The notes under the pieces are model-generated. The model did no database searches. It had not been told where the DNA came from and worked only from the letters and a program-made list of their open reading frames with translations. Of a stretch of 9,855 bases of DNA, positions 1 to 9,855 are shown piece by piece. A program made the translations under genes and the position numbers. The DNA is from a virus (Duplodnaviria > Heunggongvirae > Uroviricota > Caudoviricetes): the IMG/VR virus record IMGVR_UViG_2617270976_000011, positions 1 to 9,855 of that record; one strand, given 5' to 3'. Numbering within the stretch: the first letter of the stretch is position 1; each line of letters opens with the position of its first letter.

Positions 1-996
1 TTATGGACGCATTATGGACATTCCTGACACCGGGTTAAGAGTCACAGCATCTTGTAAGAAATCCGGTGCAAAGTGTGCGTAGGTCATAGTTTGCTGAATG
101 TTAGAATGACCCAGGATGCGCTGCAATGTGATTATGTTACCTCCATTAATTATAAAATGTGTGGCAAATGTATGCCTCAAAACATGTACTGCTTGTCCGT
201 CAGGTAAATCGGGTTTTACTTCCCTGAGAGCGTTACGCACTTTGTAGTAACTGGCATTAAAAAGCCTGCCTGAATTTTTGGTCTTGATCCTTTTAATCAG
301 GTCCTGCGAAACGGGAATTGTCCTGCGCTTTCCGTTTTTAGTTTTCATAAACGTAACCATCTGGTTAATGATGTGTTCAGCTTTCAAATTAGACACTTCA
401 CTCCAGCGTCCACCAGTAGAAAGGCAGACTAGAGTTGCATTTAACTCATCACCATCAAGCATGGATAACAGCCGCGTAATCTCTTCACTGGACAAAAAAG
501 CCATTTCTGTAACAGCTTCACGTAACCGCTTAACCTCACGGAACGGGTTGTGAGAGTGGTATTCACCGGCGTCAATTAACTTGGTGAACATCCCGCTCAT
601 TATTGCCAGATGCCGATTTACGCTGGCTGGTTTTAGACCATCGTTCATCATTACAACTCGATAATCAGTTATCGTTTTCTTTGTTAACTGGTCAGCTCTG
701 GACACTCCCATTTCTGCAAATTTGGCGATTATTGTCGTCAAACGCCCCCGTTCAATATTTCCACGCTCATGTGATTTTCCGTGATATATCCACCATCTGC
801 CTAACAACTCTGTAAGAGTTCGGCGGTCGGCTGGCTTCTCCAGCCACTCTTTGTTGTGGTAGTTAACCAGCACATGACGTTCGAATGCTTGAGCTTCACC
901 TTTAGTTTTAAATTTCCGCCTGATACGTTTTCCATCTGCACCCTGCGGTCTGACGTCCACTTCATAACGACCATCATCGAGCTTTTTAATAGACAT
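1..996 (-). CDS. int: Phage tyrosine integrase, P2 family, complete (331 aa)
   Basis: Full-length minus-strand ORF. The C-terminal catalytic region has HxxR (HVLRHTFATHF) and a conserved Tyr (MTYAHFAPDF). The N-terminus MSIKKLDDGRYEV matches my recollection of P2 Int (337 aa). A GGAGGG Shine-Dalgarno lies just upstream of the ATG at 994-996. Confidence 0.9.
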   Translation of the reverse strand: MSIKKLDDGRYEVDVRPQGADGKRIRRKFKTKGEAQAFERHVLVNYHNKEWLEKPADRRTLTELLGRWWIYHGKSHERGNIERGRLTTIIAKFAEMGVSRADQLTKKTITDYRVVMMNDGLKPASVNRHLAIMSGMFTKLIDAGEYHSHNPFREVKRLREAVTEMAFLSSEEITRLLSMLDGDELNATLVCLSTGGRWSEVSNLKAEHIINQMVTFMKTKNGKRRTIPVSQDLIKRIKTKNSGRLFNASYYKVRNALREVKPDLPDGQAVHVLRHTFATHFIINGGNIITLQRILGHSNIQQTMTYAHFAPDFLQDAVTLNPVSGMSIMRP

Positions 997-1089
997 AAAG
1001 CCCTCCGATGACGCTGTTTACTTCTACTACTTGAAAATTAATGCAATTTTCTTTCGTACATTTACTGCACACATATGCTGAATAAATCG

Positions 1090-1401
1090 TCAGCCAGTCT
1101 TTTGGTCTGAGTGGTGCAAGGTTGTTGAGTCTTGCCCAATGTGCGCGAGCGCCGGGGCTATTTGTCCGCCAGCGGGATCAGTTTCATCAAACATGAACCA
1201 GTCACGGTACTTGCGAAATCTTTCTGGCTTGAAAAATTTCATACCTGCGTCAAAAGACATCTTTACTTTTCCCTGCTCATATCCAGCATAGGTGTTGTAG
1301 TTAATTCCAGTTAATTCAGCAACTTGCTTCCTTGTCATTCTTTCTGATTCCCGAATAAGTGCGAGTTTCTCTGCTTGAGATGTGATTTGTGTATTTGACA
1401 T
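1090..1401 (-). CDS. C: P2 C-type immunity repressor (about 103 aa)
   Basis: The track ORF (1090-1449) contains an internal Met at 1399-1401 that begins MSNTQITSQ, and its C-terminus GQIAPALAHIGQDSTTLHHSDQKTG matches my recollection of P2 C (99 aa). It lies immediately upstream of int on the same strand, as in P2. The 16 extra N-terminal codons in the track ORF are probably not translated. Confidence 0.8.
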   Translation of the reverse strand: MSNTQITSQAEKLALIRESERMTRKQVAELTGINYNTYAGYEQGKVKMSFDAGMKFFKPERFRKYRDWFMFDETDPAGGQIAPALAHIGQDSTTLHHSDQKTG

Positions 1402-1505
1402 GAATTGTCGTATCTCGTAATTTATGTTGTATGCGACACACCAGAACAACGCAGAGCGGCTTCAAATAGCTCTGGTTGAATGGCACCAAAGTTGAGGATA
1501 TCAAA
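1402..1505. promoter_or_regulatory. Immunity/early switch intergenic region between divergent C and cox starts (expected Pc/Pe promoters and repressor operators)
   Basis: 104-bp AT-rich spacer between the divergent start codons. It contains imperfect direct repeats TGTCGTAT (1406-1413) and TGTTGTAT (1425-1432). P2 C repressor is known to bind direct repeats; the specific sites here are not verified. Confidence 0.35.
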
Positions 1506-2690
1506 ATGAGTATTGGATCAGAAATGAATAACGATGTTGGAGAAAAAGTATCTGATCTCACAAAAAGTAAAAAATGTGACATCAAACTTGCAGCCGCACC
1601 GTCGGATTTGCTCTCGAAAGAGGGTTTTGCTCTTTACATCGGTAAGACGCCTCGCGCTGTTGCTGAAATGGCGAAAGCAGGCAAGTTACCAGCCTTTTAT
1701 ATGACGGACCCATTAAAGCCGGGCGGTCATGCTGAGTTATGGATTAACCGGGGCGGTGCTGCGGGGTATATCGCGAAATACATTTCAAAAAACATCGACG
1801 GCTATGCACTGGATGGTCAGCTCGATAACGACACCGGCAGGCCGCTGAAAGACACTGCCGCGGCTGTTACCGCATGGGCGTCAACGTGGCGCATTCCGCA
1901 ATTTAAAACGGTTGGCCTGCCGACAATGGGGGCTTACCGTGAACTACGCAAATTACCTCGCGGCGTCAGCATTGCTGATGAGTTTGACGAACGCGTCGAG
2001 GCTGCACGCGCTGCCGCAGACAGTGGCGATTTTGCGCTGTATATCAGCGCGCAGGGTGGGGCAAATGTCCCGCGCGATTGTCAGACTGTCAGGGTCGCCC
2101 GTAGTCCGTCGGATGAAGTTAACGAGTACGAGGAAGAAGTCGAGAGAGTGGTCGGCATTTACGCGCCGCATCTCGGCGCGCGTCATATTCATATCACCAG
2201 AACGACGGACTGGCGCATTGTTCCGAAAGTGCCGGTCGTTGAGCCTTTGACTTTAAAAAGCGGCATCGCCGCGCCTCGGAGTCCTGTCAATAACTGTGGA
2301 AAGCTTGCCGACGGTGGCGATCCAGTTATGACACCTACGCCGTCTGAGCATGCCGCAGCGGTGCTAAATCTTGTCGATGATGGGGTTATTGCATGGGATG
2401 ACCCCGAAGTTGTGACGGTGCTCAGGAGTGCATTAAAACACGGCGCGCCGCAGCAAAATCGACAGCAAAGAAGCGATGAGCCATTAAAATCGAATCAGAT
2501 AGCACCATCAGGGCGAATGACAAAAGCCGAGAGGGCTCAGATTCCGCGCATCCGCTTCGAACTGGCGCAGCAGGGTATCACGCCGCAGCGGTGGGAACTT
2601 CAGGCGCTGGCTCGTGGCGGAATAGTGGTTTATGGCGAAAAAAGATTTGTATACCCGATAGCGGACGAGTGGGTGAAGCATGAAGGGTGA
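1506..2690 (+). CDS. In-frame deletion fusion: Cox-like HTH N-terminus (about 80 aa) joined to the C-terminal ~310 aa of rolling-circle replication initiator gpA; probably a non-functional remnant
   Basis: The N-terminal segment FALYIGKTPRAVAEMAKAGKLPAFYMTDPLKPGGHAELWINR resembles P2 Cox. It runs directly into GYIAKYISKNIDGY, the paired-tyrosine (Y-x-x-x-Y) motif of phiX174/P2 A-type initiators. Gene B and the N-terminal ~450 aa of A are absent. A GAGGA Shine-Dalgarno precedes the ATG at 1506; the track ORF starts earlier at 1476. Confidence 0.7.
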   Translation: MSIGSEMNNDVGEKVSDLTKSKKCDIKLAAAPSDLLSKEGFALYIGKTPRAVAEMAKAGKLPAFYMTDPLKPGGHAELWINRGGAAGYIAKYISKNIDGYALDGQLDNDTGRPLKDTAAAVTAWASTWRIPQFKTVGLPTMGAYRELRKLPRGVSIADEFDERVEAARAAADSGDFALYISAQGGANVPRDCQTVRVARSPSDEVNEYEEEVERVVGIYAPHLGARHIHITRTTDWRIVPKVPVVEPLTLKSGIAAPRSPVNNCGKLADGGDPVMTPTPSEHAAAVLNLVDDGVIAWDDPEVVTVLRSALKHGAPQQNRQQRSDEPLKSNQIAPSGRMTKAERAQIPRIRFELAQQGITPQRWELQALARGGIVVYGEKRFVYPIADEWVKHEG

Positions 2691-2753
2691 TTTATATCCA
2701 TCTAAATCATGATGTTATGATGGCCGTGTGAGTTCTTTTCTGATTGGGGCTGC

Positions 2754-2928
2754 GTTCGACGGCTTGAAATGTTGTAAATGCTCATAATCTGGTTTAAAGT
2801 GTTTTTATGCCAACGACTAGGAGCATCTCCAGTCATAAATGTTGGCCTCTACAGGCCTTTATATAGTGTTGCTCTTGTACTGCCTTCTCTTTCGAGAGAA
2901 GGTATGTACAAGAAGTAAAGCCTGCGAA
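2754..2928 (+). ncRNA. Candidate retron msr-msd non-coding RNA (boundaries approximate)
   Basis: Non-coding leader directly upstream of, and co-oriented with, the RT gene. Candidate a1 TTCGACGGCTT (2754-2764) is complementary to candidate a2 AAGCCTGCGAA (2918-2928) at 9 of 11 positions, with a G immediately 3' of a1. A strong hairpin at 2876-2910 sits just 5' of a2, where an msd stem would be. Not confirmed by folding or covariance. Confidence 0.3.
2876..2910 (+). repeat. Inverted-repeat hairpin: 8-bp perfect core CCTTCTCT/AGAGAAGG with a TTCG (UUCG) tetraloop, extendable to about 15 pairs with one G-T wobble and a 1-nt bulge
   Basis: Read directly: 2883-2890 CCTTCTCT, loop 2891-2894 TTCG, 2895-2902 AGAGAAGG; outer arms TGTAC (2876-2880) and GTACA (2906-2910). 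Confidence 0.8.
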
Positions 2929-3016
2929 GGGAGGGTGTCTGGGGTGAGGAAAGACTGAGAGTTAAAGCATTCATCTTAGAATCCATTCAACTCAAAAAAC
3001 AAAAGCTCAGCCAACG

Positions 3017-4006
3017 ATGAAACCCCTTAGTCTCGAAAAAGCCTTCAATATTGCATTCTTCGAAAAAGATTCCTTTCAAAACTTTCTTTCGTTTGAACCA
3101 TTTCAACAAACTAAATTTATAACCTTTGATGAAAGGTTAATTGCTGAGCCCACTTCTAAACTAAAAGAGTATCACAAATTCATAAATGAATTTGTTCTTT
3201 CATACTTGAAAGTAAATAAGGATGTTGTGTTTTCGTATAGAAAAGGAAGCAGCACTTATGATGCAGTAAAACTTCACGCCTGTAGTAAGATATTCTTCAA
3301 TACTGATATTAAAAGCTTTTTCCCATCGATAACTCGTGAATATGCACGATCAGTTTTAGTTGATAACTTATCGAACGTTCCCATTTCCGATTTAAATATA
3401 CACTTGGATAAAATTTTAGATTATATTATTATCGATAATTCGTTGCCTGTAGGGTTCCCGACATCACCAGCTTTCAGCAATGCATGTTTATATGACTTTG
3501 ATGTTGAGATGCAGCAATATTGTATTAACCATGAATATATATTCACACGCTATTCAGATGATATTATTATTTCCTCTGAAAATGATGAGGGCTTTGAGAA
3601 TATTCATTCTGTAGTAAGTGACCTGCTGGGTGAGTTTGGGAAGGGACATTTCAAACTAAACTCAGCAAAAACTAAATTGATTAAAAAAGGCAGTAAGATT
3701 AAGCTGCTGGGGATGGTTATTTTACCGTCTCAGATAGTCTCTGTTGATATTAAAATAAAAAGAAAGCTTGAGCATTTGATTCATTTTTATGTAACGGATA
3801 AAGATAAATTTATAGATTCTATAATAAAAGATCCTAAGGTTAAAACTAGCGGATTGAATGATAGTGAGATCTTGGAAAAGGGCGTTAATACAGTTTCTGG
3901 TCTTTTGAATCATATAAACACAATTGATAAGAGTTATCTCGATAAGCTAAAGAGAAAATACGGAAATACGATTGTCGATATGCTTTTTTACAAGAATGTA
4001 AATTAA
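3017..4006 (+). CDS. Reverse transcriptase, retron-type (329 aa)
   Basis: RT motifs are in canonical order: SSTYDAVKLHA (NAxxH-like box, residues 78-88), DIKSFFPSI (motif A, 97-105), LPVGFPTSPAFSN (QG-P-SP box, 143-155), YSDD catalytic box (179-182, nt 3551-3562), LLGMVI (230-235). Small size, no maturase or endonuclease domain, a non-coding structured leader upstream and an effector gene downstream all fit a retron. AT-rich coding sequence. Confidence 0.85.
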   Translation: MKPLSLEKAFNIAFFEKDSFQNFLSFEPFQQTKFITFDERLIAEPTSKLKEYHKFINEFVLSYLKVNKDVVFSYRKGSSTYDAVKLHACSKIFFNTDIKSFFPSITREYARSVLVDNLSNVPISDLNIHLDKILDYIIIDNSLPVGFPTSPAFSNACLYDFDVEMQQYCINHEYIFTRYSDDIIISSENDEGFENIHSVVSDLLGEFGKGHFKLNSAKTKLIKKGSKIKLLGMVILPSQIVSVDIKIKRKLEHLIHFYVTDKDKFIDSIIKDPKVKTSGLNDSEILEKGVNTVSGLLNHINTIDKSYLDKLKRKYGNTIVDMLFYKNVN

Positions 4007-4007
4007 A

Positions 4008-5360
4008 ATGAAAATAAATATTGAGATCTCGAAAATCCAGCATGTTGAACATATGTCATTTGCTATTGATCTTTCTGAAAATAAACTGACTTGCATTGTA
4101 GGAAAGAACGGTGCTGGAAAGACAACGCTAATCAAAGCAATTAAAAATTTACAATCAGCAGATACATTCATAAAGACATCTTCTAGATATATATTCAATC
4201 CTGACAGTAGTATAGTATATAATATTAATGATCAAGATATAGTATATGTCTATGATGAGAATTTGAAGGTAATAGATACTAAGCAAATAATTCCAGCAGA
4301 TATAAAATCCAATCTTTATGTCGAGTTGCCCATTCCTCATGGAATGAGGTTCAATAACTTCCCAACACTTAGTAAAATTGATACTGAACTTAGAAAAAGT
4401 ATTGCGTTTGAAAGCTATAGCGTTCCCGAGGATTTGATAAATATACTCAATGAGGTATATCAGTCTTCTTCTTACAATAATCTTAAAGCATTTTCTGTAA
4501 AAAATGAAATTTTCTATTTCAGATTGAATGAGAACGGAACATACATAAGGGAGGATTACTTTAGCTCGGGTGAGTATTTTATTTTGAATTTATTTAGAAT
4601 GATTGAGCTCAAAAGAAAATTCATTGTCATAGATGAGATAGATATATCACTAGACTCTTCGGCGCAAGTCCATCTTATAGCAGTGCTAAGGAAATATTGT
4701 CAGAGACACTCGGTGAATATTGTATTCACAACACATTCACTTGCTTTAATGCAAACGCTGAATGATGATGAATTGTACTATATGTGCGAAGGTGATGCTG
4801 GAACTACAATTACAAATCGATCATATAATTATATAAAAAGTACGCTTTTTGGATTTAAAGGATGGGATAAGTACATTCTTACTGAAGATGAAGTTCTGCA
4901 AAATTTCTTAGAATATATAATTAATGCTCCTGGGAATGATTACTTCTACGAATATAAAATAATATATGTTGGTGGAGGAACTAATGTCATTGATTTAATG
5001 CGTCGTAATGAGAGAGAGAGCTTTCTCACGACTCAACAGAATGTGATCTCAGTGTTAGACGGAGATCAATTAGGTCAAAGGCATGCTCGAGGTGAAAATA
5101 TTTTATGCATACCTTTCCAAAGCGTTGAGAAGGATTTCTATCAAGCATACGGCCAAGATGAATCGATCCCGAGAGTTACAACTAGAGGTAACGATAAACT
5201 TGATAAGCAAGTTTATCGAGGGGTAGTGAAAACCTATGACAACGGCTGGGATGAAACTAGGATTTTTGAATACCTTGAGAGGTTAAAGCCTGATGAATGT
5301 GAGGCTTTCAGGCAAAAAATTAGAGCATTTCTCCAAAGAAATATTTCGGCAGAGGGTTGA
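4008..5360 (+). CDS. OLD-family ABC-type ATPase with C-terminal TOPRIM-like nuclease domain (450 aa); probable retron effector
   Basis: Walker A GKNGAGKTT (residues 32-40, nt 4101-4127), ABC-signature-like FSSGE (185-189), Walker B FIVIDEID (205-212), H-loop TTHS (241-244). The C-terminal half has TOPRIM-like acidic residues: ILTEDEV (Glu ~293) and VLDGDQ (DxD, 351-353). The ATG lies 1 nt after the RT stop (TAA 4004-4006, ATG 4008-4010). Confidence 0.8.
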   Translation: MKINIEISKIQHVEHMSFAIDLSENKLTCIVGKNGAGKTTLIKAIKNLQSADTFIKTSSRYIFNPDSSIVYNINDQDIVYVYDENLKVIDTKQIIPADIKSNLYVELPIPHGMRFNNFPTLSKIDTELRKSIAFESYSVPEDLINILNEVYQSSSYNNLKAFSVKNEIFYFRLNENGTYIREDYFSSGEYFILNLFRMIELKRKFIVIDEIDISLDSSAQVHLIAVLRKYCQRHSVNIVFTTHSLALMQTLNDDELYYMCEGDAGTTITNRSYNYIKSTLFGFKGWDKYILTEDEVLQNFLEYIINAPGNDYFYEYKIIYVGGGTNVIDLMRRNERESFLTTQQNVISVLDGDQLGQRHARGENILCIPFQSVEKDFYQAYGQDESIPRVTTRGNDKLDKQVYRGVVKTYDNGWDETRIFEYLERLKPDECEAFRQKIRAFLQRNISAEG

Positions 5361-5502
5361 ATATAAGCTTCGGGATCTCATGCCTCTCTATCTGCATGAA
5401 ATTGCATTTGATAATTCCTATTTTTCTCGTGAACTGTGTCACGTTAGGCGCAGCTCAGGGCTCATAATGCATCTGCATTAAAACCGCCCCACGAAGCGGG
5501 CG

Positions 5503-5521
5503 GGCGAGGCGGGGAAAGCAC
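5503..5521. other. Candidate P2-type cos cohesive-end sequence GGCGAGGCGGGGAAAGCAC
   Basis: The 19-mer matches my recollection of the P2 19-nt cohesive end. It sits in a GC-rich non-coding stretch between the cargo cassette and head/tail remnants, which is where cos lies in a P2 prophage (between old and Q). Identification is from memory, not a search. Confidence 0.5.
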
Positions 5522-5663
5522 TGCGCGCTGGCGGTGGTGCTGATTTTATTTTTTCAGCGTCTGAGCGCGTCGTGAAGGCGTTTACTTGGCCTGCTGGGGC
5601 GTTGGTGTGTCTGCGGGATTTTTTGTGCGGTGATGAGCGTGTGAGGGCGTGATGACAGGGTAT

Positions 5664-5685
5664 AAAAAAGCCGCCCGCAGGCGGC
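5664..5685 (-). terminator. Intrinsic terminator-like hairpin for leftward transcription (GCCGCC-TGCG-GGCGGC followed by TTTTTT on the minus strand)
   Basis: Plus strand shows AAAAAA (5664-5669), GCCGCC (5670-5675), CGCA loop, GGCGGC (5680-5685). This lies immediately downstream of the minus-strand ORF stop at 5691-5693. Confidence 0.55.
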
Positions 5686-5690
5686 GATGT

Positions 5691-6209
5691 TCAGCCGTTG
5701 TCAGTGTCCAGTGAGTAGTTTTTAAAGCGGATGACCTCCTGACCGAGCCAGCCGTTTATCTCGCGGATCCTGTCCTGTAGCGGGATAAGCTCATTGCGGA
5801 CAAAGACCTTTGCCACTTTCTCAATATCACCCAGCGACCCGACGTTCTCCGGCTTGCCTCCCATCAACTGAAAGGGGATGCGGTGCGCGTCCAGCAGGTC
5901 AGCGGCGCTGGCTTTTTTGATATTAAAAAAATCGTCCTTCGTTGCGACTTCACTGAGCGGGATAATTTTAATGCCGTCGGCTTTCCCCTGCGGGGCATAG
6001 AGAAACAGATTTTTAAAGTTGTTGCGGCCTTTCGACTTGACCATGTTTTCGCGAATACGGGATGCGTGACCGTTCAGCTCGCGCAGTGATTTTTGTGTTT
6101 CCCGGATATCCCCCGACAGCGACCTGCTCGCTGTACGGATGGATTTAAACGGGCGGGATGCCTGGTCAACAGCCCTGAGCAATACCTGTAATTTTACATT
6201 GTTACTCAT
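5691..6209 (-). CDS. Chimeric ORF (172 aa): N-terminal ~60 aa consistent with the start of tape-measure gene T, fused to a ~110-aa portal-like (gpQ-like) C-terminal segment
   Basis: Its ATG (6207-6209) overlaps the stop of the upstream E' frame (TAA 6203-6205) as ATGAGTAA, the position expected for the start of T after E/E'. The C-terminal part (AHRIPFQLMGG ... NELIPLQDRIREINGWL) resembles a conserved C-terminal portal motif. Its own frame is closed by a TGA 18 codons upstream of the ATG. Confidence 0.45.
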   Translation of the reverse strand: MSNNVKLQVLLRAVDQASRPFKSIRTASRSLSGDIRETQKSLRELNGHASRIRENMVKSKGRNNFKNLFLYAPQGKADGIKIIPLSEVATKDDFFNIKKASAADLLDAHRIPFQLMGGKPENVGSLGDIEKVAKVFVRNELIPLQDRIREINGWLGQEVIRFKNYSLDTDNG

Positions 6210-6491
6210 TCGTGTTTCCGCTTCGCCGGAGCGCCTTTTCGCGCCATGTGATGAGTTCGGTCAGGCTCATGGGATACAGTTCTGATGGCGGCCAGTGAAA
6301 TATCACAGCCACATCCGCCATCAGGTCATCGACCGAGAGATTTTTCGGAAACGTCACTGCACCGAGTTCGGCGACAAAAAACCGACCACCTTACCGGCCA
6401 GCGCCACAAGGTCAGGCAGTTCCAGCGCGGCGACTTCCTGCTCGGTCAGAACAGGTAAAGCTGCTGATAGCGACCGGAGGCCGTGGATTTT
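6203..6491 (-). pseudogene. 5'-truncated remnant of tail assembly chaperone genes E and E+E' (programmed -1 frameshift pair)
   Basis: Minus-strand frame 0 reads ...LTEQEVAALELPDLVALAGKVVGFLSPNSVQ-stop, with no start codon and an in-frame stop at 6492-6494. The -1 frame continues from the slippery site as FFVAELGAVTFPKNLSVDDLMADVAVIFHWPPSELYPMSLTELITWREKALRRSGNTNE-stop. Seven codons after the slip in frame 0 and a 58-codon extension fit the 91-aa and 142-aa sizes I recall for P2 E and E+E'. Confidence 0.5.
6375..6381 (-). other. -1 programmed ribosomal frameshift slippery heptamer T_TTT_TTG
   Basis: Plus strand is CAAAAAA at 6375-6381, i.e. TTTTTTG on the minus strand, positioned in frame as X_XXY_YYZ seven codons before the frame-0 stop. 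I recall the same heptamer as the P2 E/E' frameshift site. Confidence 0.5.
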
Positions 6492-6526
6492 TCACCGCGA
6501 CGGTTAAACACCTTCGCCGGTCGACC

Positions 6527-9256
6527 ATGTGCGAACGGGTGGTCACTGTAGTCGGTGAAGATTTCCGGCTTTCCCAGCAGGATTTCAGCCGCTTTGTGCT
6601 GGATTTTCTGGTGTTCGGTAATGCGTTTCTGGAAAAGCGTTACAGCACCACCGGTAAGGTCATCAGACTGGAAACCTCACCGGCAAAATATACCCGCCGT
6701 GGTGTGGAGGAGGATGTTTACTGGTGGGTGCCGTCCTTCAACGAGCCGACAGCCTTCGCGCCCGGCTCCGTGTTTCACCTGCTGGAGCCGGATATTAATC
6801 AGGAGCTGTACGGCCTGCCGGAATATCTCAGCGCCCTTAACTCTGCCTGGCTGAATGAGTCAGCCACGCTGTTCCGCCGCAAGTATTACGAAAACGGCGC
6901 ACATGCCGGATACATCATGTACGTCACTGATGCCGTGCAGGATCGCAACGATATCGAAATGCTTGAGGGATTCCGCAAGACCAGTGCACAGCTTGCCGTG
7001 ACTGGTCATGCACTTGAAAAGGCTCGGCAGGAAGCCGAAGCCCTTGCCACACAGTTTAAAAACACCGAACGTCCGACCCGTGCTCAGGCGAAAGTGCTGG
7101 AATCCGCAAAGCGTGCGGCGGAGGACTTACAGGCGAAATATAACCGCCTGACGGATTCCGTTAAACGCCAGCAGCGGGAACTGGCCGCTGTGGGAATTAA
7201 TACCCGCAATCTTGCACATGATGAGCAGGGACTGAAAAACCGTATCAGTGAAACCACCGCACAGCTTAACCGTCAGCGTGATGCGCTGGCGCGTGTCAGT
7301 GCGCAACAGGCAAAACTTAACGCAGTCAAACAGCGTTATCAGGCCGGAAAGGAACTGGCCGGAAATATGGCCTCAGTAGGCGCTGCCGGTGTGGGGATTG
7401 CGGCGGCGGGAACGATGGCCGGAGTTAAATTGCTGATGCCCGGTTATGAGTTTGCGCAGAAAAACTCAGAATTGCAGGCCGTGCTCGGAGTGGCAAAAGA
7501 CTCCGCCGAAATGACCGCACTCCGCAAGCAGGCGCGCCAGCTCGGCGACAATACCGCAGCCTCGGCAGATGATGCAGCCGGTGCACAGATAATCATTGCG
7601 AAAGCGGGTGGAGATGCTGCGGCTATTCAGGCAGCAACGCCGGTCACACTGAATATGGCACTGGCAAACCAGCGGTCGATGGAAGAAAACGCGCAATTGT
7701 TGCTGGGGACTAAGGCATCCTTTCAACTGTCAAATGATGATGTCAGCCATGTGGGCGACGTGTTGTCGGCAACGATGAATAAGTCGGCGGCTGATTTTCA
7801 GGGACTCAGTGATGCACTGACTTACCTCGGCCCGGTTGCGAGGACGGCAGGTGTAAGTATTGAGCAGGCAGCGGCCATGACCGGTGTGCTGCATGACAAT
7901 AACATCAGGGGGTCAATGGCGGGTACGGGTAGCAGTGCCGTTGTCACCCGATTACAGGCACCGACTGGAAAAGCATGGGATGCACTCAAAGAGCTTGGCG
8001 TTAAAACCTCGGACAAAAAGGGAAATATGCGTCCGTTGTTCACCATTCTGAAAGAGATTCAGGCCAGCTTTGATAAGCATAAGCTGGGAACGTCTCAGAA
8101 GGGGGAATACCTTAAAACCATTTTTGGTGAGGAAGCCCTGAAATCAGCGAACGTTTTACTGGCAGCGGCAGCAAGCGGAAAACTGGATACGCTGACCGCC
8201 ACGCTGAAAGCCTCGGACGGTAAAACGGAAGAGCTGGTTAAAATCATGCAGGATAACCTCGGCGGTGACTTTAAGGAGTTTCAGTCCGCTTATGAGGCGG
8301 TGGGGACTGACCTGTTTGACCAGCAGGAAGGCGCACTGCGTAAGCTCACTCAGACGGCCACAAAGTATGTGTTAAAACTCGACGGCTGGATCCAGAAAAA
8401 CAAATCACTGGCGTCAACCATCGGCCTCATTGTCGGTGGCGCGCTGGCGCTTATTGGCATCATCGGTGCCATTGGTCTTGTCGCCTGGCCGGTTATCACC
8501 GGCATCAATGCCATTATCGCGGCAGCAGGCGCAATGGGGGCAATCTTCACGACGGTTAGCAGTGCTGTTATGACGGCCATCGGGGCGATTAGCTGGCCGG
8601 TTGTGGCCGTGGTGGCCGCCATTGTCGCCGGGGCGTTGCTTATCCGTAAATACTGGGAGCCTGTCAGCGCATTCTTTGGCGGTGTGGTGGAAGGGCTGAA
8701 AGCGGCATTTGCGCCGGTGGGGGAACTGTTCACGCCACTGAAGCCGGTGTTTGACTGGCTGGGTGAAAAGTTACAGGCCGTGTGGCAGTGGTTTAAAAAC
8801 CTGATTGCCCCGGTCAAAGCCACCCAGGACACCCTGAACCGTTGCCGTGACACGGGCGTTATGTTCGGGCAGGCACTGGCTGACGCGCTGATGCTGCCGC
8901 TTAATGCGTTCAACAAACTGCGCAGCGGTATTGACTGGGTACTGGAAAAACTCGGTGTTATCAACAAAGAGTCAGACACACTTGACCAGACCGCCGCAAG
9001 GACTCATGCCGCCACGTATGGCACCGGTGGTTATATTCCGGCGACCAGCTCTTATGCTGGCTATCAGGCTTATCAGCCGGTCACGGCACCGGCTGGCCGC
9101 TCTTATGTGGACCAGAGTAAAAACGAATATCACATCAACCTGACGGGCGGTACTGCGCCGGGGACACAGCTCGACCGCCAGTTACAGGATGCGCTCGAAA
9201 AATACGAGCGGGATAAACGTGCGCGCGCCCGTGCCAGCATGATGCATGACGGTTAA
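6527..9256 (+). CDS. Chimeric long ORF (909 aa): N-terminal ~150-aa portal-like segment fused in frame to ~745 aa of phage tail tape-measure protein (gpT-like)
   Basis: From about residue 160 onward the protein has a long coiled-coil region, a conserved tape-measure core (ASFQLSNDDVSHVGDVLSATMNKSAADFQGLSDALTYLGPVARTAGVSIEQAAAMTGVLHDNN) and Gly/Ala/Ile-rich hydrophobic segments. The first ~150 residues (e.g. FRRKYYENGAHAGYIMYVTDAVQDRNDIEMLEG) are unlike tape measure and look portal-like. No Shine-Dalgarno precedes the ATG, and the frame is open back to 6299 without a start. Confidence 0.75.
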   Translation: MCERVVTVVGEDFRLSQQDFSRFVLDFLVFGNAFLEKRYSTTGKVIRLETSPAKYTRRGVEEDVYWWVPSFNEPTAFAPGSVFHLLEPDINQELYGLPEYLSALNSAWLNESATLFRRKYYENGAHAGYIMYVTDAVQDRNDIEMLEGFRKTSAQLAVTGHALEKARQEAEALATQFKNTERPTRAQAKVLESAKRAAEDLQAKYNRLTDSVKRQQRELAAVGINTRNLAHDEQGLKNRISETTAQLNRQRDALARVSAQQAKLNAVKQRYQAGKELAGNMASVGAAGVGIAAAGTMAGVKLLMPGYEFAQKNSELQAVLGVAKDSAEMTALRKQARQLGDNTAASADDAAGAQIIIAKAGGDAAAIQAATPVTLNMALANQRSMEENAQLLLGTKASFQLSNDDVSHVGDVLSATMNKSAADFQGLSDALTYLGPVARTAGVSIEQAAAMTGVLHDNNIRGSMAGTGSSAVVTRLQAPTGKAWDALKELGVKTSDKKGNMRPLFTILKEIQASFDKHKLGTSQKGEYLKTIFGEEALKSANVLLAAAASGKLDTLTATLKASDGKTEELVKIMQDNLGGDFKEFQSAYEAVGTDLFDQQEGALRKLTQTATKYVLKLDGWIQKNKSLASTIGLIVGGALALIGIIGAIGLVAWPVITGINAIIAAAGAMGAIFTTVSSAVMTAIGAISWPVVAVVAAIVAGALLIRKYWEPVSAFFGGVVEGLKAAFAPVGELFTPLKPVFDWLGEKLQAVWQWFKNLIAPVKATQDTLNRCRDTGVMFGQALADALMLPLNAFNKLRSGIDWVLEKLGVINKESDTLDQTAARTHAATYGTGGYIPATSSYAGYQAYQPVTAPAGRSYVDQSKNEYHINLTGGTAPGTQLDRQLQDALEKYERDKRARARASMMHDG

Positions 9257-9270
9257 GGAGGTGACGAAAA

Positions 9271-9555
9271 ATGATGCTCGCGTTAGGTATGTTTGTTTTT
9301 ATGCGCCAGACGCTGCCACACCAGACCATGCAGCGTGAATCAGATTATCGCTGGCCGTCAAATTCCCGTACCGGTCGTGCAGATATTTACACGGAAACAC
9401 CGGTCAGAGTGTCAGGCTTTAAGCGCGTCATAGACGAGCAGGACTGGACAATCACTAAGGTGACACATTTTCTGAATAATAGCGGCTTCACGACGTCCTT
9501 AGAGCTTGAGGTCAGGCTTTCTGATGTGGAGTACGAAACAGAAGATTATGAGTGA
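9271..9555 (+). CDS. Truncated tail protein remnant (94 aa): gpU-like N-terminus, possibly fused to a gpD-like C-terminus
   Basis: A strong AAGGAGGTGA Shine-Dalgarno (9255-9264) precedes the ATG, 15 nt after the T stop, which is where U sits in the P2 FETUD operon. At 94 aa it is far shorter than U (about 159 aa) or D (about 387 aa), so an internal deletion is likely. The U/D fusion point is inferred, not demonstrated. Confidence 0.45.
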   Translation: MMLALGMFVFMRQTLPHQTMQRESDYRWPSNSRTGRADIYTETPVRVSGFKRVIDEQDWTITKVTHFLNNSGFTTSLELEVRLSDVEYETEDYE

Positions 9556-9636
9556 TGTATTTTGTTTATCTGTTTGTTTTATAAGGATAAATTAACTAAA
9601 ATGGCAACATCAACAAAACCGGAAGAGGTGCTCGCG

Positions 9637-9855
9637 ATGTTTCATTGTCCTTTATGCCAGCATGCCGCACATGCGCGTACAAGCCGCTATATCACTGACA
9701 CGACAAAAGAGCGTTATCACCAGTGTCAGAACGTGAATTGCAGCGCCACGTTCATAACTTATGAGTCGGTACAGCGATACATCGTGAAGCCGGGAGAAGT
9801 CCACGCCGTAAGGCCGCACCCGTTGCCGTCAGGGCAGCAAATTATGTGGATGTAA
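9637..9855 (+). CDS. ogr: Ogr late-gene transcriptional activator, C4 zinc-finger (72 aa)
   Basis: Sequence MFHCPLCQHAAHARTSRYITDTTKERYHQCQNVNCSATFITYESVQRYIVKPGEVHAVRPHPLPSGQQIMWM matches my recollection of P2 Ogr, including the CxxC...CxxxxC zinc-finger cysteines. The track ORF (from 9562) carries 25 extra N-terminal codons that are probably not translated; 9601 is an alternative start. Confidence 0.85.
   Translation: MFHCPLCQHAAHARTSRYITDTTKERYHQCQNVNCSATFITYESVQRYIVKPGEVHAVRPHPLPSGQQIMWM

Follow-up and report, generated by a model that had tools for sequence, protein, structure and literature searches.

Reciprocal inversion of portal and tape-measure genes in a defective P2-family prophage of Escherichia coli

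How does a tape-measure gene come to be divided between the two strands of a phage genome, with each part running in frame into a stretch of the portal gene? This question is raised by a 9,855-bp piece of caudoviral DNA (hereinafter the window), for which a first-pass annotation made from the sequence alone had postulated an inverted segment, broken in the leftward portal gene Q at one end and in the tape-measure gene T at the other, giving two reciprocal in-frame chimeric ORFs. A block map against an intact relative and an in-silico reversal of the segment both agree with that proposal. Taking the evidence together, we consider it highly probable that the window is a defective P2-family prophage of one E. 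coli lineage, shaped by one homology-free reciprocal Q/T inversion and four microhomology deletions, with the chimeras as by-products of its decay.

Block structure of the prophage remnant

The window corresponds to a whole prophage, with int at one end and ogr at the other, integrated between the pflA and pflB genes of E. coli 2-316-03_S4_C2. It belongs to the P2 family (Peduovirus-like), with collinear int, C, cox, A, cos, Q, E/E′, T, U, D and ogr blocks and blastx matches for every listed P2-like protein; the blocks are 90–100% identical to those of the L001 prophage and of Peduovirus P24B2. As the reference for block coordinates we used L001, an intact relative prophage with the same retron, against which BLAST resolves the window into the blocks 1744–6055 (+), 6054–6449 (−), 6443–6574 (−), 6567–6964 (−), 6963–9375 (+) and 9369–9855 (+). 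Dot-plots against L001 and the isolated phage P24B2 gave identical block structures. Relative to the intact relative, positions 6054–6964 are inverted; what survives in this segment is limited to the 5′ end of T, E′, the 3′ end of E, 132 bp of K and Q codons 93–224 (Table 1). The P2 cos 19-mer, located immediately upstream of the portal 3′ end, separates the cargo hotspot from the portal gene and marks the left boundary of the morphogenetic arm in its native layout.

Table 1. Features of the rearranged region, in window coordinates
Feature	Position	Strand	Evidence or L001 equivalent
P2 cos 19-mer GGCGAGGCGGGGAAAGCAC	5503..5521	+	Exact match; 0/200 shuffles matched
Portal gene Q 3′ part, codons 224–344 + stop, native orientation	5691..6055	−	L001 10564–10928 collinear, 100%
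Chimeric ORF T(1–52)::Q(224–344), 172 aa	5691..6209	−	Protein comparison with L001 Q and T; KDY23377.1
Left inversion junction, AA 2-bp overlap of parental Q and inverted T	6054..6055		BLAST block ends; side-by-side parental sequences
Tape-measure gene T 5′ end, codons 1–52, inverted	6054..6209	−	L001 28900–28745 minus-strand match
E′ frame (6202–6357, 51 aa, 100% identical) and gene E 3′ end (codons 59–91), inverted	6202..6449	−	
Lysozyme gene K 132-bp fragment, codons 43–86, inverted	6443..6574	−	L001 17631–17500 minus strand, 97%; blastx
E–K deletion junction, 7-bp overlap, one mismatch to L001, 3 bp exact	6443..6449		L001 17632–28504 equivalent gone
K–Q deletion junction, 8-bp overlap, one mismatch to L001, 5 bp exact	6567..6574		L001 11325–17499 equivalent gone
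Portal gene Q middle, codons 93–224, inverted, now reading on +	6567..6964	+	L001 11324–10927 minus strand, 97.5%
Chimeric ORF antisense K (14 aa)::Q(93–224)::T(52–815), 909 aa	6527..9256	+	Protein comparison, blastx; KDY23379.1
Right inversion junction, TT 2-bp overlap, exact reciprocal of left	6963..6964		BLAST blocks; in-silico reversal
Tape-measure gene T, codon 52 to stop, native orientation	6963..9256	+	98.0% to P24B2 T, 90% to L001 T
Two further deletion-junction overlaps	1744–1750 and 9369–9375		cox–A and U–D deletions outside inverted segment

Four deletions (cox–A, E–K, K–Q and U–D) account for the loss of about 21.5 kb overall, about 17 kb of it through the E–K and K–Q deletions inside the inverted segment; the missing stretches include the equivalents of L001 3428–6616 and 31312–32662. 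Among the genes gone are P, O, N, M and L along with those for lysis, baseplate, fibre, sheath and tube, and the prophage, in which essential morphogenetic genes are absent, is defective. The first-pass annotation had envisaged the loss of most of the intervening head genes: the deletion is real, but it extended to genes for lysis, baseplate, tail fibre, sheath and tube, and it spared a fragment of K. The prophage has been pared down to its genes for integration and immunity plus a retron defence cassette that is still intact; it is ordinary prophage wreckage and no new system. The retained retron is intact and of type I-B; an Rfam scan for its ncRNA gave nothing at the gathering threshold.

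Junctions and chimeric reading frames

Both inversion junctions trace back to one pair of parental dinucleotides, AA at 10927–10928 in Q and TT at 28899–28900 in T, and hence zero bases were lost or gained. Reversing positions 6056–6962 in silico restores a T ORF of 815 codons whose only stop is the terminal one, plus a continuous Q 93–344 frame. End-to-end alignments were obtained in 1,608 genomes for the rebuilt Q stretch of 761 bp (best identity 99.2%) and in 1,571 for the rebuilt E–T stretch of 794 bp (best identity 99.4%), these roughly 1,600 genomes being E. coli prophages. Since identity to P24B2 is 98.7% over the 5′ part of T and 98.0% over its 3′ part, a single T allele can explain both halves. 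A conservative reciprocal inversion joins Q codon 224 to T codon 52. The junctions had earlier been sought near 6012–6030 and 6980–6995, at AAG-containing microhomology, with the tape-measure body beginning at about 6990; they are in fact at 6054/6055 and 6963/6964, some 20–40 bp away, the shared bases are AA/TT with no such microhomology, and T on the plus strand begins at 6963.

Both chimeric ORFs occupy the positions originally assigned to them, and the overlap of the T start with the E′ stop, ATGAGTAA, is present at 6202–6209 on the minus strand. Aligned with the L001 proteins, each ORF splits cleanly: in the 172-aa product residues 1–52 correspond to T 1–52 (96%) and residues 52–172 to Q 224–344 (99%), while in the 909-aa product residues 15–146 correspond to Q 93–224 (100%) and residues 146–909 to T 52–815 (92%). 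The fused segments thus do match gpT and gpQ, and the portal assignment of both, at first made from motifs, is borne out by the Q 224–344 and Q 93–224 matches. The description of the plus-strand ORF as portal-like from its start holds for residues 15–146 but not for the first 14 codons, which, with the ATG at 6527, are antisense K.

Because Q and T face each other and were broken at the same position within a codon, a coincidence with a chance of 1 in 3, both inversion products read in frame together. Selection as a reading of the in-frame fusions was set aside: in-frame joins make up three of the four same-strand cases, a mild excess over expectation that is not significant (P ~0.11), and the frames of the two inversion products depend on each other. 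From the loss of promoters, we infer that the chimeras are probably silent by-products of decay and not working genes: no sigma-70-like promoter was found within 5400–7100, and none of the L001 intervals that contain the late promoter regions (P/O, V and F) has a counterpart in the block map of the window. Among about 15 billion proteins, the 172-aa chimera forms a singleton 90%-identity cluster without relatives. For annotation, this means that the deposited "phage portal family protein" (172 aa) and tape-measure protein (909 aa) would be fusion pseudogenes of a dead prophage.

Mechanism of the inversion and the deletions

We propose that the inversion arose through a single illegitimate break-and-rejoin between Q codon 224 and T codon 52, which would place it in the short-homology-independent class. 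In topoisomerase/gyrase-type illegitimate recombination, breakage and rejoining are enzyme-linked and the junctions have 0–3 bp of homology; work from the Ikeda laboratory reportedly attributes the short-homology-independent class to breakage and rejoining of this type. Both the short overlap (2 bp) and the conservative exchange appear to fit that class better than end resection followed by annealing. By our own calculation, about 16% of blunt joins would have an overlap of 2 bp by chance, and so the overlap says little by itself on the enzymology. No inverted repeats pair or flank the two junctions.

The deletions, by comparison, may have formed through slipped or microhomology-mediated joining: their overlaps span 7–8 bp with one mismatch to L001 (3–6 bp exact), and one copy is kept at the junction. 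The microhomology-dependent, RecA-independent illegitimate recombination of E. coli has been likened to MMEJ (PMC11372144); the four deletions resemble its products in that their two ends share 3–8 bp, of which a single copy remains, whereas the inversion differs in sharing 2 bp and in being conservative. More generally, prophage 'grounding' usually proceeds by deletions and inversions, which also yield new ORFs (PMC6379469). As for the order of events, an 18-kb inversion followed by the deletions gives the same product as the deletions followed by a 0.9-kb inversion, such that the inversion-first sequence initially proposed is one of two equally possible orders. The locus thus offers, within 10 kb, a natural example of a base-perfect homology-free inversion beside four microhomology deletions.

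The arrangement is carried by three assemblies, all in a single orientation: a 188-kb NCBI contig and a Logan assembly are 100% identical to the window over all 9,855 bases, and a third assembly, ERR14760663, matches it except for one SNP, the nonsynonymous N813D, which is the sole polymorphism seen. Across 5,426 complete E. coli genomes no place covered 80% of any query, the queries being the whole window, a 1.4-kb junction-spanning stretch and a 281-bp stretch over the two internal deletion junctions. The arrangement is absent from all phage records, and the exact junction k-mers were found in none of the species-representative genomes, metagenome contigs or viral contigs. Thus, against the possibility raised at the outset that related intact phages have this arrangement natively, no searched phage or genome does so.

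Hin/Gin/Cin-type serine invertases normally invert a tail-fibre segment by a strictly conservative reaction with a 2-bp stagger cut, and their segments are bounded at both ends by imperfectly palindromic crossover sites of about 26 bp in inverted orientation. The perfectly conservative Q/T exchange, with its AA/TT 2-bp crossover, is akin to inversion by the Hin/Gin/Cin/Pin family. Moreover, L001, the closest intact relative, encodes an invertase of this family (25893–26486) inside the segment that would have flipped, and its natural crossover sites (23887–23912 and 25812–25837) have TT/AA core dinucleotides as at the Q/T junctions. Off-target recombination at quasi-sites by the phage's own invertase is nevertheless improbable. 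Neither breakpoint is a natural crossover site, and their 26-bp surroundings score 9/22 (Q) and 3/22 (T) against the crossover consensus, as compared to a background mean of 6.7 and 20–21 for the natural sites; a pseudo-site of the invertase was rejected as the leading mechanism on account of this lack of resemblance. Further, the window has neither flanking 26-bp sites nor a serine invertase gene, and the enzyme is known from L001 only, the matching region of the window being deleted and the tail region mosaic (T is 90% identical to that of L001). That both chimeras are in frame and that the 2.7-kb ORF is still open could be read as marks of a programmed invertible switch or of a domesticated gene pair under selection, which we regard as barely conceivable. 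Against this reading stand the missing inverted repeats, the one orientation in the three assemblies, and the fact that the sole remaining recombinase is the prophage integrase, which would require a longer identical overlap, as well as the singleton status of the 172-aa chimera, the nonsynonymous nature of the only polymorphism and the failure to find a promoter. Moreover, the in-frame fusion of both products is automatic once the breaks share codon phase.

All three carrying assemblies are apparently short-read and no complete (long-read) genome has the arrangement, as might be the case were it a chimeric contig assembled from a strain with one or more normal P2-like prophages. Such an artefact is extremely improbable: the structure is identical in three assemblies from at least two distinct samples, with a private SNP in one, the contigs reach 188 kb with normal pflA/pflB flanks, and assemblers working on k-mer graphs would have needed spanning reads to produce junctions with an overlap of only 2 bp. 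An intermolecular origin through illegitimate joins between two P2-like genomes, one of them the resident prophage and the other a different phage or prophage, would be in line with the sharply different nearest relatives of the blocks: L001 for the left arm, strain 90-9281 for the Q middle (99.7%), WP7-S18-ESBL-09 for T5′/E (100%) and P24B2 for T3′ (98%). However, two independent joins would need to have used identical Q and T dinucleotides for the reciprocity to be perfect, and P2-like phages are routinely mosaic. Further, homologous exchange after the rearrangement could reach no further than a junction, and therefore block-wise histories are expected anyway. We accordingly deem an intermolecular origin very unlikely and favor the single reciprocal inversion.

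Block histories and related remnants

The left arm is 99.9–100% identical to L001 up to the breakpoint, with 0 mismatches in the 1,385 bp immediately left of it (4671–6055), as against 10 mismatches in the 398 bp of the Q middle. The abrupt shift in identity to the relatives at the breakpoints means that the histories of the blocks are in part separate, and later homologous exchange has to be added to a simple picture of one ancestor and one event. From gene A across the retron and cos to the 3′ end of the portal gene, the remnant shows no difference from the intact prophages of AHM21C2872I and Z1322HEC0001, which also carry the retron. The identity breaks off at the Q breakpoint, a boundary that informative sites at −16 and +35 place to about 50 bp, and beyond it the divergence rises to 2.5%. 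According to De Paepe et al. (2014, PMC3945230), temperate phages acquire defective-prophage DNA by homologous recombination, and the near-identity tract over the retron-bearing left arm, ending where homology ends, resembles the exchange described there. A tract end at the inversion breakpoint is as expected for exchange between the remnant and a live relative, because homology ends there. On the basis of these identity patterns we tentatively raise the possibility, which we hold to be doubtful, that the rearranged remnant exchanged DNA with live P2-like phages in either direction, with the inversion junction bounding the tract. If so, a functional phage would have rescued a type I-B retron arm from a dead prophage, or the reverse, and an intact portal gene would bear a datable recombination scar. 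The block-wise identity pattern would at most constitute a small testable case of exchange between defective prophages and live phages.

Partial matches in E24377A and PE15 were considered as further carriers and rejected, as they display plain Q-to-E/FII deletions in native orientation. The P2-like remnant of E24377A is of the same family, resides at the same pflA–pflB site and likewise keeps the int–C end, the cargo hotspot and the T–U–D–ogr end. Both remnants have, like the window, lost morphogenetic genes; however, theirs is a history of plain deletions with Q and T native (and in E24377A also an IS21 insertion), to which the window adds the reciprocal Q/T inversion.

Gene content and collinear blocks of the remnant

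The window is a P2-family prophage, whose gene content we derived from a six-frame ORF list and from blastx comparison with an intact relative's proteins (see table). It is 100% identical over 9,855/9,855 bases to JNQT01000004.1 (E. coli 2-316-03_S4_C2, GCA_000704325.1), where it takes up the entire space separating pflA from pflB. By blastn against L001, an intact prophage of E. coli AHM21C2872I with the same retron at the same chromosomal site, it resolves into seven collinear blocks, and the isolated Peduovirus P24B2 gives an identical block map. The 97-aa ORF with a TTG start (9562–9855, +) over-extends ogr, the 72-aa Ogr being matched by its residues 26–97 only, at 100%.

Genes of the remnant and its blocks relative to the intact prophage L001
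Feature	Window	Strand	L001	Basis
Integrase	1–996	-		six-frame ORF list, blastx
Repressor C	1093–1401	-		six-frame ORF list, blastx
Cox::A fusion	1476–2690	+		six-frame ORF list, blastx
Reverse transcriptase	3017–4006	+		six-frame ORF list, blastx
ATPase-Toprim protein	4008–5360	+		six-frame ORF list, blastx
P2 cos 19-mer	5503–5521			exact match
Portal, E/E', lysozyme and tape-measure pieces	between cos and U::D fusion
U::D fusion	9271–9555	+		six-frame ORF list, blastx
ogr	9637–9852	+		six-frame ORF list, blastx
Block: int, C, cox 5'	1–1750	+	1678–3427	blastn
Block: A 3' part, retron, cos, Q 3' end	1744–6055	+	6617–10928	blastn
Block: T codons 1–52, E', E 3' end	6054–6449	-	28900–28505	blastn
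Block: lysozyme K codons 43–86	6443–6574	-	17631–17500	blastn
Block: Q codons 93–224	6567–6964	-	11324–10927	blastn
Block: T from codon 52, U 5'	6963–9375	+	28899–31311	blastn
Block: D 3' end, ogr	9369–9855	+	32663–33149	blastn

Inversion and deletions

The two ORFs that the first-pass annotation had described as chimeras of the portal gene Q and the tape-measure gene T are real, since the block maps on L001 and P24B2, the protein comparisons and the overlap of the E' stop with the T start (ATGAGTAA, located on the minus strand at 6202–6209) all agree. Both split cleanly at the protein level: the 172-aa ORF (5691–6209, -) comprises T 1–52 followed by Q 224–344, and the 909-aa ORF (6527–9256, +) opens with 14 antisense K residues and continues with Q 93–224 and T 52–815. 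At the left junction the Q block stops at L001 10928 and the inverted T block begins at 28900, while at the right one the inverted Q block stops at 10927 and the T block begins at 28899; the inversion is thus exactly reciprocal and conservative. Reversing 6056–6962 in silico restores an 815-codon T gene with a single terminal stop and a Q 93–344 frame without interruption, which together with the reciprocal junctions upholds the proposed inversion in substance. The junctions, however, belong at 6054/6055 and 6963/6964, and instead of the suggested AAG microhomology they share only AA (6054–6055) and its complement TT (6963–6964).

The loss of intervening genes is likewise borne out, but it was not confined to head genes as had been proposed. 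Two deletions lie inside the inverted segment, equivalent to L001 11325–17499 and 17632–28504, which between them contain the 5' end of Q, genes P, O, N, M, L, X and Y, portions of K, the remaining lysis genes, R, S, V, W, J, I, H and G, the fibre/invertase region, FI and FII, and the 5' portion of E. Outside it, a 3.2-kb deletion from the cox 3' end to A codon 441 (L001 3428–6616; junction 1744–1750) also removed B and small early genes and created the in-frame Cox(1–~85)::A(442–756) ORF, and one of 1.35 kb from U codon ~36 to D codon 326 (L001 31312–32662; junction 9369–9375) created the in-frame U(1–~35)::D(327–387) ORF. All four deletion junctions display a BLAST overlap of 7–8 bp, of which 3–6 bp are exact when counted with L001 as a stand-in for the parent. 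Such overlaps are what RecA-independent deletion at microhomologies, which has been likened to MMEJ (PMC11372144), usually leaves behind. Nor need the inversion have preceded the deletions, as first envisaged: an 18-kb inversion followed by deletions and deletions followed by a 0.9-kb inversion yield the same end product.

The reading frame is kept in the Cox::A and U::D fusions and in the two inversion products, the last two together because their breaks share codon phase (chance 1 in 3), while K::E is out of frame; three of four same-strand fusions in frame is not significant (P about 0.11). The block map lacks every intergenic region in which a P2 late promoter (P/O, V, F) would lie, and a sigma-70 scan found no promoter-like site in 5400–7100. 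Being without relatives or a promoter, and with one nonsynonymous polymorphism, both chimeras are best read as fusion pseudogenes, and their names in the deposited records, "phage portal family protein" and "tape measure protein", are misleading.

Origin of the inversion and proposed exchange with related phages

The junctions are not paired by any inverted repeat, which excludes homologous or programmed inversion. L001, the closest intact relative, harbors a Hin/Gin/Cin-type invertase with an invertible tail-fibre segment (23887–26486); the 26-bp crossover sites are TTCTCGCATACCTTGGTTTGGGAGAA and TTCTCCCAAACCAACGTTTATGAAAA. Off-target action of this serine invertase on sites in Q and T would be attractive in that the enzyme is encoded inside the segment (25893–26486), AA/TT forms the core of its natural crossover sites, and enzymes of this kind cut with a 2-bp stagger and recombine in a strictly conservative manner. 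When compared with the consensus of the 26-bp sites, however, the Q site scores 9/22 and the T site 3/22, as compared to 20–21 for natural sites and a background mean of 6.7; we hence do not favor this explanation and regard it as very improbable. The prophage tyrosine integrase is also an unlikely agent because it would require an identical overlap longer than 2 bp. By elimination, we propose that the inversion arose in one illegitimate, short-homology-independent break-and-rejoin event, of the type attributed in E. coli to topoisomerase/gyrase-type enzymes.

Sequence identity to relatives shifts at the breakpoints. Both AHM21C2872I and Z1322HEC0001 carry intact prophages with the retron, and these show no mismatches from 4671 to the Q breakpoint (6055) but 10 in the 398 bp of Q codons 93–224, beginning at +35. 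In strain 90-9281 the pattern is reversed, with one mismatch in that stretch and five in the 3' part of Q (the closest to the breakpoint at -70), and in WP7-S18-ESBL-09 the T5'/E stretch (394 bp) is identical, divergence beginning at +32. Since two independent joins hitting identical dinucleotides are very unlikely, this pattern suggests homologous exchange with related live phages after the rearrangement, in tracts bounded by the junction. It is in line with the published recombination of temperate phages with defective prophages (PMC3945230). The T gene (6963–9256) is itself mosaic: its first 300 bp past the junction are 98–99% identical to all relatives, and the whole T body is 98% identical to P24B2 and only 90% to L001, WP7-S18 and the PE15 remnant.

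Distribution of the arrangement and its retron cargo

The rebuilt Q (761 bp) and E-E'-T (794 bp) stretches align end-to-end in a single piece in 1,608 and 1,571 complete E. coli genomes, with best identities of 99.2% and 99.4%, respectively. Among the 5,426 complete genomes, no locus covers at least 80% of the window or of a 1.4-kb query over all junctions; the same holds for a 281-bp query over the two internal deletion junctions, with which no intermediates were found. No phage record spans the junctions, and exact junction k-mers are absent from species-representative genomes, metagenome contigs and viral contigs. As the rebuilt stretches are widespread and the junctions unmatched in genomes, phage records and contigs, this gene order is a derived one, confined to a single lineage, and no known phage has it natively. 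The 172-aa chimera forms a singleton cluster at 90% identity among about 15 billion proteins.

An assembly artefact is ruled out by the presence of the structure in three assemblies, one with its own SNP: the Logan assembly of SRR1186598 is 100% identical to the window, and the third, ERR14760663, matches 5205–9260 with 8963 A>G (N813D in the 909-aa ORF) as the sole difference. Moreover, contigs of up to 188 kb hold the structure with ordinary chromosomal flanks, and k-mer overlap cannot make junctions with 2 shared bp.

The window thus adds one more case, real but ordinary, of a "grounded" prophage reshaped through deletions and an inversion (PMC6379469). Two other P2-like remnants decayed by independent routes through plain deletions, as opposed to deletions plus inversion: that of E24377A shares the pflA-pflB site and carries a Q-to-E deletion as well as an IS21 element inserted in T, and that of PE15, at yegQ, a P-to-FII deletion. 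The cargo of the A-cos hotspot differs in each. In the window this position holds the main intact cargo, a type I-B retron cassette (3017–5360, +), whose RT (329 aa) matches PADLOC RT_I-B (E=6.5e-110) and whose effector (450 aa) matches ATPase-Toprim_I-B over its full length (E=1.6e-179). An Rfam scan returned no msr/msd at the gathering threshold; the unannotated retron ncRNA presumably lies in 2690–3016.
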